In this document: in pieces, positions 58,081 through 59,819 of the stretch
Numbering within the stretch: position 1 is the stretch's first letter
How the letters are laid out: each line of letters starts with the position of its first letter
Assembly (NCBI RefSeq): GCF_056746865.1
Contig: NZ_CM163382.1
Direction: 5' to 3' (one strand)
DNA length: 64,000 nt
Translations under genes and position numbers: made by a program
Notes under the pieces: generated by a model
What the model was told of the DNA's origin: nothing
The model's database searches: none
Seen by the model: the letters and a program-made list of their open reading frames with translations, nothing else

Positions 58081-58890
58081 ATGAAACAATATGAAGATGG
58101 TTATAACGTGAATGGATATAGCTGGGAAAATGAAACAATTGAGTATTTGTTGAATGATAAACAACTGACAGATAATCACATACCTGAATGGGTTAAAAAA
58201 AATGAAATTGCAGCATTCTGGTTCTGGTTAGTTATAATTAACACAGATCCCAAACTCCTTGGGGTTCGTAATGAATTAGGGTTCAATACAGCCATGATGG
58301 GGCTGATTCCTGCGGGGAGTATACCCATAACAACAATTCCTTCAGATCATGAAATGAGACTGGATGTTATAAGCAAATGGATTAATGCATTAATCCTTGA
58401 CAATCAATCAGATTGCTTCATCTCAACAATGCATCAAAACTGGCTGCAGATCGAAAAGAGAAACGAAGCCAAATGGCTTAAAAAGAATACAGAACAACTC
58501 GAATGGGCATGGAAATATATCAATGCACGCATCCCGCACACGTATCTTTCCTGGTTTTATCCTGTAAGTGATAACGAAAGATACATTGCTATCGTAGTTT
58601 TACTAAAAATTTTATTCCCCGCAGATACACCATACTTACAGCAGCCAAAAGTACTTCACTATGGGGTTGCCGCAAAAGAAAAATTTTTCGACAAGATGCA
58701 CAATGCATTCCGAAAACAGTTTACCGACGGAAAAAAAGATAAGCGGGTACAAATCAACGTTAAAATATCATCAGATGCAAAACGTACTCTGGACAGACTG
58801 ACCAGAGAACTGAAAACAACACAACAGGCTGTCCTGGAACATCTGATTCAGAACCACAGGCTGGTGATTCAGAACCACAGACTGTATTAA
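58081..58890 (+). CDS. hypothetical protein (269 aa) with possible C-terminal ribbon-helix-helix-like segment
   Basis: ATG at 58081 after GAGG; no family recognised; C-terminal ...INVKISSDAKRTLDRLTRELKTTQQAVLEHLIQ...; stop overlaps stop of convergent gene. Confidence 0.45.
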   Translation: MKQYEDGYNVNGYSWENETIEYLLNDKQLTDNHIPEWVKKNEIAAFWFWLVIINTDPKLLGVRNELGFNTAMMGLIPAGSIPITTIPSDHEMRLDVISKWINALILDNQSDCFISTMHQNWLQIEKRNEAKWLKKNTEQLEWAWKYINARIPHTYLSWFYPVSDNERYIAIVVLLKILFPADTPYLQQPKVLHYGVAAKEKFFDKMHNAFRKQFTDGKKDKRVQINVKISSDAKRTLDRLTRELKTTQQAVLEHLIQNHRLVIQNHRLY

Positions 58891-59819
58891 CTTTCACCAC
58901 TTCTGCTCCTGCCGATTTTCTTCTTTTGGTAGTGTCTCCTGGCTGCGGATATCAGATACTTTTCCGTCATTTTGTTGCAGAACTCTTCAATGTAGTTAAT
59001 CATTTTCTGGTGTGCTTTCAGCTTTTCTTCCCCGGGGGACGCTTTCAGATAAATGTCCTCCTTTTCCACAAGCGCATTGACAAACTCCCCTAAACATCCC
59101 TGGTTATAAAGCGACGTGAAAAACAACACATCCCCCAGTCTCTCCAGTAACTGTGGTTTATCCCCGAAATGTTTTTTTATACTTTCAAAAGGTTTTCTAT
59201 TTTCCGGATCAAAAAAAACACTTAATCCCAGTCGCTTATATTCCTGGTAAAAAAGTTCAAACGTCGGGGATGCTGAACGGCAAATAAACGAAGACTGCGC
59301 CCATGGATTAAAATCTGTGACACGCCTCCCCTCCCGCACTTCCTGTCGTGTCAGCGGTGGTTCAGCAAACCAGGCGTCCAGCTCAGCCGAATCGTTATCC
59401 CTGCTCAAAACCTCATACAAACTGCCCGTGAACGGTTGAGCCGTTTGTTTTGTTGCTTCGCCTTCTGATTGTCTGAATCCATCCACTTTTCTCCGGATAT
59501 TACGCGGAATCAGCATAAAAGGCGGGACATTAAGTGATAAACGTTTACCCGTCATGCGATACCATTGACCTACCTCAACCTTAATCCGTGTATCTGACTT
59601 TAGCTCAAGTGCCATTATGTTAAGCAGGTACAGATAACGCACCGTATAACGATTAAAATGTTTCTCCGGATCAAACGATTCTGACCGTTCTCCTCTGTAC
59701 ACGAGTCTGCTGCGCTTCAGTATTCGCAGAGTATATTTCCAGGCCGGACTTTTACAAATGGCGGTAACTCTGGCCTTATTAACAATGTCGCGTAATGCAT
59801 CAATCTGTTGTGCAGTCAT
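58887..59819 (-). CDS. hypothetical protein (310 aa)
   Basis: ATG at 59819 (MTAQQIDALRD...) after GGAGGG; no family recognised. Confidence 0.45.
   Translation of the reverse strand: MTAQQIDALRDIVNKARVTAICKSPAWKYTLRILKRSRLVYRGERSESFDPEKHFNRYTVRYLYLLNIMALELKSDTRIKVEVGQWYRMTGKRLSLNVPPFMLIPRNIRRKVDGFRQSEGEATKQTAQPFTGSLYEVLSRDNDSAELDAWFAEPPLTRQEVREGRRVTDFNPWAQSSFICRSASPTFELFYQEYKRLGLSVFFDPENRKPFESIKKHFGDKPQLLERLGDVLFFTSLYNQGCLGEFVNALVEKEDIYLKASPGEEKLKAHQKMINYIEEFCNKMTEKYLISAARRHYQKKKIGRSRSGES

Follow-up and report, generated by a model that had tools for sequence, protein, structure and literature searches.

Gene pair and its surroundings

The stretch of DNA considered here (the window) comprises 64,000 nucleotides of contig NZ_CM163382.1 in the NCBI RefSeq assembly GCF_056746865.1 and includes an island of the CP4-like family; the DNA is that of E. 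coli. Between the last Gp2/YagK-like gene of this island and its YeeP/YfjP-like GTPase gene lie two convergent genes, termed A and B, which are the subject of this report (Table 1). RefSeq/PGAP lists them with identical limits as WP_032153709.1 (A) and WP_023155730.1 (B), each under the name of 'hypothetical protein', and no mention of the pair was found in a literature search. A first-pass annotation, made from the sequence alone, had described two convergent open reading frames (ORFs) with good ribosome-binding sites, stop codons sharing a TTAA, the two flanking genes and a ribbon-helix-helix (RHH)-like end in the plus-strand protein, and had interpreted the pair as variable cargo of the island. 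The structural part of this description holds. The limits and Shine-Dalgarno sequences of both genes and the identity of both flanks were confirmed, the RefSeq coding sequences agree, and the TTAA is shared exactly as described because the TAA of A occupies 58888-58890 on the plus strand and the TAA of B is the complement of 58887-58889. For gene B, an alternative GTG start is present at 59834. The interpretation as cargo did not survive the comparison of related islands.

Both genes are without a described family, as had been noted at the outset. The PADLOC-DB v2 defence models gave zero matches to A or B at E <= 1, and searches of NCBIfam, PHROGs and Pfam with A, B and the family alignments gave nothing significant, the only signals being weak RHH matches on A. 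No RNA family was found by Rfam over 53000-64000, and a promoter scan for A and B returned no convincing sigma-70 promoter (3 sites against 6.9 expected). A and B are real genes rather than chance ORFs, since full-length homologues at 21-28% identity occur in other genera and the structural model of B is confident.

Table 1. Positions of the genes and sequence features in and around the A-B pair of the window
Feature	Position	Strand	Description
Last Gp2/YagK-like gene	54400..55131		flank on the A side
AT-rich iteron-like array	~55990-56082 and 57278-57405		~210 bp, interrupted by IS5
TTAG target duplication	56079-56082 and 57278-57281		4 bp, flanks IS5
IS5, complete	56083-57277		1195 bp
IS5 transposase ORF	56115-57131		338 aa
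GCATGT(T/A)-rich box	57866..57883	+	GATAGCATGTTTTAATTT; directly upstream of the 11-bp array
Four head-to-tail 11-bp direct repeats	57889..57932	+	GAATAGATCAA GAATAGATCGT GAATAGTTAGA GAATAGTTCTT
Gene A	58081..58890	+	269 aa; ATG; GAGG 9 nt upstream
RHH-like segment of A	58732..58854	+	residues ~218-258
21-bp tandem duplication at the 3' end of A	58844..58884	+	2 copies, 95% identical
TTAA common to both stop codons	58887..58890	both
Gene B	58887..59819	-	310 aa; ATG; GGAGGG ~5 nt upstream
B/GTPase divergent intergenic region	59820..59925		75 bp at the GTPase start nearly invariant
75-bp GTPase leader	59851-59925
Inverted repeat over the GTPase start codon	59869-59884 / 59921-59936
YeeP/YfjP-like GTPase gene	59926..60810	+	divergent from B

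Conserved position of the pair

Across Enterobacterales, both the convergent arrangement of the pair and its place in the island are conserved. We compared 13 loci carrying B in the short form seen in the window, namely the E. coli types L001-L004 and the distant loci L005 and L008-L015, which together derive from E. coli, Citrobacter, Hafnia, Serratia and metagenomes. In all 13, a B homologue converges on an A homologue, down to 21-28% identity, and the first-pass annotation's question as to whether the pair recurs as a unit in related islands can thus be answered with yes. On one flank of the pair is always the AlpA/YagK-YfjJ side of the island, and on the other the GTPase/WYL-DUF932 side. 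The gene order in L002-L004 consists of a Gp2-like gene, an unannotated gap of 1.3-1.7 kb, A, the 4-bp overlap, B, about 105 bp and the GTPase gene, and this order persists even with an A of only 28% identity (across the aligned part) and a B whose C-terminal third has been replaced.

The distant loci follow the same plan. An A-like gene of 256-320 aa faces B in each of the nine, several of them with weak PF10723 matches; AlpA and YagK/YfjJ genes are divergent on the A side, and the GTPase gene, or a WYL gene where the GTPase has been lost, is divergent on the B side. The GTPase gene is divergent from B in 6 of these 9 loci and is missing or rearranged in L012, L014 and L015, with L008 being too short to show the arrangement. 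The A-B pair is retained in L012, L014 and L015 despite this loss or rearrangement. Because the position is the same in relatives of 21-28% identity from Escherichia, Citrobacter, Hafnia, Serratia and metagenomes, and in every short-B locus compared, the pair is not variable cargo.

The reach of the family became visible through profile searches. Word-indexed searches retrieved Escherichia proteins only, with many alleles of B (59-93% identity) and few of A (46-99%). An alignment profile of B, run against 1.84 billion cluster representatives, retrieved 48 proteins, including the full-length relatives at 21-28% identity. The cluster members, from whose names the taxonomy of the distant relatives was taken, belong to Citrobacter braakii, C. 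amalonaticus, Hafnia alvei, Serratia and one Acinetobacter metagenome-assembled genome, and AFDB adds Salmonella. B was found in none of 50,697 phage records and in 2 of 72,556 plasmids, which ties it to the CP4-like island family.

Forms of gene B in E. coli

A census of 5426 complete E. coli genomes located the GTPase gene in 2505 places in 1870 genomes; islands of this family are thus carried by about one third of the genomes, often in several copies. The N-terminal part of B was found in 810 places. A further 1069 places carry a long B of 407 aa (the type of locus L016) and 515 carry a long B of 376 aa (the type of locus L017), so that the three types sum to 2394 places, or about 96% of the GTPase places. 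The census and the homology of the long forms together indicate that a B-superfamily gene is close to universal in these islands of E. coli.

In two other E. coli islands, single long B genes (WP_001773856.1, L016 5752-6975; WP_077462115.1, L017 5762-6892) replace A and B in the same slot, where they diverge from the GTPase gene, with the same invariant 75-bp leader in front of the latter. They are homologous to residues 19-217 of B (hhalign probability 94%, E 1e-7 for L016; 98%, E 1.5e-13 for L017) and share its W..T, P..IRR and (G/S)LY motifs; the C-terminal third differs. At the N-terminus, both long forms are extended by about 90 aa of Cys-rich, basic sequence with the pattern C-x4-C...C-x2-H (CCCH), for which NCBIfam, Pfam and PDB returned no match. 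No A-like ORF and no homology to A was found at either of the two long-B loci examined. The long B is not a fusion of A and B, as it has no A-like part (hhalign probability 3.6%).

The GTPase leader stands out by its own constancy. It occurs in about 1865 genomes whatever lies upstream, and the flanking genes differ greatly. An inverted repeat covers the GTPase start codon, and RNA folding gives a hairpin of -24.1 kcal/mol (z -1.95); judging from this fold, the hairpin may bury the start codon and exert translational control over the GTPase operon.

Proteins encoded by the pair

Gene B encodes a basic protein (isoelectric point (pI) 9.6) that is mostly helical with one small beta-hairpin. Its AlphaFold model is confident (pLDDT 87.5, pTM 0.85), and the structure comparison that had been suggested for it found no relative outside its own family, including no relaxase, HUH or recombinase fold; a sequence-profile search of PDB with B matched nothing. 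B defines an undescribed orphan protein superfamily without structural relatives. The conserved core comprises the N-terminal two-thirds of the protein, the C-terminal third being variable. Conserved motifs are SxAWxNTQxxLKRSG, P..IRRKVDGFRQ, GSLY, SPTF.LF..E..RLG and LLE.LG..LFF..LY, and Trp27, Pro105, Lys111, Tyr135 and Glu193 are invariant.

The protein encoded by gene A has three parts: a helical domain on the N-terminal side that is acidic (about residues 20-177; pI 5.4), a disordered linker at residues 180-199, and a C-terminal region that is basic (pI 10.3). Its AlphaFold model is less certain (pLDDT 72, pTM 0.64). The last 40-50 residues of A are probably an RHH domain, as the first-pass annotation had suspected from the sequence and as weak profile matches at residues 204-259 now support. 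The A protein of the window matches RepC_IncLM (E 0.002, 18 bits against a cutoff of 80) and the RepA regulatory protein (E 0.011) in NCBIfam, and RepB-RCR_reg (i-E 0.079) and RHH_1 (i-E 0.27) in Pfam. Among 14 family members, RepB-RCR_reg (PF10723) reaches 4.6e-5 in one and RHH_1 is at or below 0.1 in six. All of the RHH-type matches fall on the same residues. In PDB, the A family profile matched CopG (2cpg) only, with the strand and helix A aligned to it, though weakly (E 0.9).

The putative RHH segment consists of a strand (RVQINVKIS), helix A (SDAKRTLDRLTREL), a KTT turn and helix B (QQAVLEHLIQN), and the alignment of the A family displays the pattern expected of RHH. The strand carries polar residues at alternating positions (Q-x-N-x-K), which we take to correspond to Q9/N11/R13 of Arc, and the inter-helix turn, K/G/N-(T/A/G)-(T/S)-Q across the family, presumably resembles the G-x-S/T/N turn of RHH proteins. 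In the monomer model, helices span residues 231-244 and 248-257, and the region 219-226 is of low confidence and unstructured, with no strand. The architecture of A would be new, its probable DNA-binding motif being a familiar one.

The 21-bp tandem duplication near the end of A repeats seven residues (IQNHRLV IQNHRLY) in the C-terminal tail that follows the RHH segment; other allelic types of A end in ...LILNGRLD, without this duplication. A is also interrupted by IS3-family elements at two different sites, in L019 (1682-3827, EC12-like) and in L020 (1843-3752, STK39-3-E). B is identical and intact in the strains with disrupted A, which form at least two independent strain groups. Since these insertions break A and leave B unchanged, the host can do without A even in the presence of an intact B.

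Overlapping stop codons and mosaic structure

Four divergent allelic types of E. coli share the TTAA overlap, among them the one whose A has 28% identity (across the aligned part). Distant relatives lack it; there, the spacing of A and B varies between an overlap of 26 bp and a gap of 121 bp, and in several of them hairpin terminators lie between the genes. As the distant loci are without the overlap, it reflects compaction within a single lineage rather than a conserved mechanism. A core mechanism of antisense or collision control by way of the overlapping 3' ends was considered and rejected, given the gaps with hairpin terminators in the distant relatives. Perfect inverted repeats that look like two-way terminators lie in the B-A gap of L012 (6481-6553), L013 (5776-5840) and L014 (7943-8014), and the E. 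coli alleles carry the 4-bp stop overlap in place of such a repeat.

Gene B is a mosaic, in that the segments 58887-59400 and 59400-59819 differ in conservation between allelic types. When the window is compared with L003, the N-terminal part of B is 87% identical, the C-terminal part of B 32% and A 22-32%. A recombination breakpoint inside B follows from this pattern, because the N-terminal two-thirds remain at 87% and the C-terminal third has been replaced together with A. We also considered co-variation between the N-terminal domain of A and the C-terminal part of B as a sign of contact, and it proved weak over 78 locus pairs (Spearman 0.04-0.43). Physical linkage of the two 3' ends explains the E. 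coli pattern, and co-variation was therefore not used as evidence.

Sequence elements upstream of A

The four 11-bp repeats (GAATAGWT...) are arranged with a perfect period 150-190 bp upstream of the start codon of A. Tandem Repeats Finder (TRF) describes the array as 3.5 copies of period 11, and a two-unit pattern derived from it gave 3 matches in the array region against 0 in 100 shuffles. Similar GAAATAGTT repeats, again with a period of 11 bp, can be seen ahead of A in L002, L004, L005 and L015; L009, L011 and L013 show different repeats of 11-12 bp. By TRF, arrays with a period of 10-12 (or multiples) were present in 5 of 13 A-upstream regions and in 16 of 520 control windows. In 10 of the 13 loci, distant genera included, a GCATGT hexamer precedes these arrays on the A-sense strand, at -290 to -80 relative to the start of A; that strand has only 1-7 copies of the hexamer per locus.

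From its sequence, the 11-bp array is a candidate operator for the RHH domain of A. The repeats lie one helical turn apart, an arrangement that resembles operators bound cooperatively by RHH dimers and that would be expected for such binding.

A second array, AT-rich and iteron-like, lies between the Gp2-like gene and A, with repeated units ATGTGTATAACACTTAnTnAAA / AAAACACTTAGTA about 700 bp upstream of A. A complete IS5 element sits inside this array in the window and is absent from the otherwise identical L001, in which the array is uninterrupted (14290-14505). By its composition, the array could be an origin, a regulator-binding array or a target of H-NS; arrays comparable to that of the window were not obvious in the distant loci.

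Proposed role of the pair

We propose that A and B form a conserved backbone module of CP4-like islands with a regulatory or DNA-handling function rather than cargo, and we rate this proposal at about even chances. The backbone in question comprises genes for AlpA, YagK/YfjJ-Gp2, the GTPase, WYL, DUF932, antirestriction, RadC and CbeA/CbtA. The sequence comparisons speak with moderate force for A being a DNA-binding protein, and faintly for B being the core working protein of the module. In such a module, the RHH domain of A would form dimers that sit side by side on the 11-bp repeats ahead of gene A and so set the expression of A itself, and A may also control the divergently transcribed AlpA/YagK-YfjJ side. 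B would act on island DNA or RNA, or on island transcription, and would need a part that targets it to DNA. It is possible that A provides this part in the lineage of the window and that the fused Cys-rich basic extension provides it in the two long-B lineages. The surfaces of contact would then probably be the two variable parts, namely the C-terminal third of B and the N-terminal domain of A.

This idea of a targeting part is supported by the presence of A with short B and its absence at both long-B loci that were checked, and it fits the strict pairing as well as the pattern of charges, B being basic and A being acidic in its N-terminal and basic in its C-terminal part. Several observations weigh against the proposal. 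The RHH assignment of the window's A protein falls below the family thresholds, and its model forms no RHH strand, which is expected of a monomer, though unproven. The 11-bp array lies 150-190 bp from the A start with no promoter placeable, and comparable arrays were found by TRF in only 5 of 13 loci. B matches no family that hints at an activity in profile or structure searches. The extension of the long B matches no zinc-finger family, so that a DNA-binding role is a guess based on the arrangement of its Cys and His residues and on its charge, and the adjacency of long B to the GTPase gene was checked in two loci only. Finally, the matched divergence of the C-terminal part of B and the RHH domain of A is equally explained by contiguous DNA.

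A bolder version of the proposal would make the B superfamily the core DNA-transaction or master-control protein of CP4-like islands. With an unseen fold, and possibly as an enzyme acting through Tyr135, Lys111 and Glu193, B would be brought to the repeats by A or by the Cys-rich finger and, together with the GTPase, would decide between silence of the island and its excision, replication or transfer. We consider this version speculative and rather doubtful.

Alternative explanations

The pair may instead constitute a replication or copy-control module of the excised island, in which A would repress the Gp2/YagK-like rolling-circle initiator, the AT-rich array would serve as an origin or control site, and B would be an accessory replication or loading factor. 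All of the weak matches of A are to RHH proteins of plasmid replication control (RepB-RCR_reg, RepC_IncL/M, the RepA regulator and CopG), A is divergent from the AlpA and YagK/YfjJ (REP_ORF2-G2P) genes in every distant locus, and the iteron-like array lies between the Gp2-like gene and A. However, the known copy-control repressors of the CopG and RepB-RCR_reg kind are small RHH proteins of 45-85 aa, encoded upstream of rep, co-transcribed with it and repressing it, whereas A has 269 aa and is divergent from the Gp2-like gene at a distance of 1.3-3 kb. The AT-rich array, moreover, is not evident in the distant loci. We regard replication control as unlikely, though not far-fetched; it overlaps the backbone-module proposal and differs from it only in the target.

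A and B could also be unrelated neighbours in the backbone that act separately, their convergence being historical. Long-B lineages manage without A, and the apparent co-variation of the two genes is explained by physical linkage. Against this stands the presence of A beside B in 13 of 13 short-B loci, despite sequence divergence and despite the rearranged neighbours in L012, L014 and L015, together with the absence of A at both long-B loci checked, where B has gained an N-terminal extension. Independent action of the two genes consequently appears to us a doubtful account.

RHH accessory proteins are typical of relaxosomes, and the pair may be imagined as a mobilisation accessory, with A as a TraY/MbeC/NikA-like RHH accessory factor of the relaxosome, marking the origin of transfer (oriT), and B as a new DNA-processing enzyme using Tyr135. 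The operon downstream resembles the leading-region genes of plasmids (DUF932, antirestriction, RadC), and B is basic with an invariant Tyr, Lys and Glu; yet the fold of B is neither that of a relaxase or recombinase nor of the HUH type, a nick site resembling oriT was not identified, and B is nearly absent from plasmids. Such a role is improbable in our estimation. The replication-control and mobilisation roles would be more specific versions of the backbone-module proposal.

The original reading of the pair as accessory cargo, either a phage-defence or a toxin-antitoxin pair, is very improbable: antitoxins often contain RHH domains, the two proteins are uncharacterised and invariably paired, and the equivalent interval of CP4-57 in K-12 holds the defence systems AbpAB and RnlAB, but no defence model matches either protein, the position is fixed across genera at 21-28% identity with the truly variable genes elsewhere, the genes are convergent rather than an operon and encode large proteins, the number of B-superfamily genes comes to about 96% of that of the GTPase places, and destruction of A by IS3 elements with B intact would not be expected to be tolerated in a toxin-antitoxin pair, although this last argument is indirect. 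A toxin-antitoxin or defence role is thus unlikely on the grounds of the missing defence matches, the fixed position, the convergence and the IS3 insertions. The first-pass annotation was right in calling the pair an undescribed system and, given its fixed position and the empty PADLOC search, wrong in calling it accessory.

Comparison with known systems

The C-terminal 40-50 residues of A would share a strand-helix-turn-helix with RHH repressors such as CopG of pMV158 (RHH_1, PF01402), RepB-RCR_reg (PF10723), Arc and Mnt of P22 and omega of pSM19035. Like the type II toxin-antitoxin systems with an RHH antitoxin (ParD/ParE, CcdA/CcdB, RelB/RelE), A and B are a two-gene unit of a mobile element in which one protein has a probable RHH domain. 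Unlike these systems, A and B are convergent and do not form an operon, B has no match to a toxin family, and the RHH segment is C-terminal in A, whereas it is N-terminal in the antitoxins. The island of the window already carries annotated CbeA/CbtA and ParD/ParE pairs elsewhere.

In K-12, the backbone of CP4-57, CP4-44 and CP4-6 encodes IntA, AlpA, YfjI, YfjJ/YagK, the YfjP/YeeP/YkfA GTPase, YfjQ (DUF932), YfjX (antirestriction), YfjY (RadC) and CbeA/CbtA. The surrounding gene order is the same as in the window, in which A and B are flanked by the YfjJ/Gp2-like gene and the GTPase gene. The corresponding interval of K-12 CP4-57 contains AbpAB, YfjM and RnlAB, and no homologue of A or B was found in the region examined; YfjM was considered as a remnant of B and rejected, as there is no similarity. 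The absence of A and B from CP4-57 may be the reason that the pair was never studied in the model strain.

Variable genes and wider occurrence of the islands

The rule from which the cargo reading had started, namely that variable genes sit between the yfjJ-like gene and the GTPase gene, applies to K-12 CP4-57 with its AbpAB and RnlAB, but fails for the islands related to the window. In these islands, the variable genes lie beyond the last Gp2/YagK-like gene, often between two YagK/YfjJ paralogues (L002 2436-3314, L004 2092-2796, L003 1076-1528, L015 10313-11287 and L017 2263-3135), and they include a restriction endonuclease, TIR-domain proteins and an acyltransferase. The interval upstream of that last gene seems to be the true slot of cargo or defence genes. 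A false lead is thereby removed for those who search for defence systems, and the likely variable slot is pointed out.

The pair is useful for the study of how CP4-like islands are controlled, and is not in itself a surprising mechanism. Two genes, one candidate DNA site and a few invariant residues offer a starting point for examining the life cycle of islands that carry adhesins, resistance genes and defence genes. In strain H9Ecoli (L001, 1-2000 and 22254-24644), one end of the same island holds sul2 together with aph(3'')-Ib/aph(6)-Id, and an ISEcp1-blaCTX-M-55 unit is inserted in its CbtA toxin gene. As indicated by this content of resistance genes, the island family is a chromosomal platform for resistance genes.

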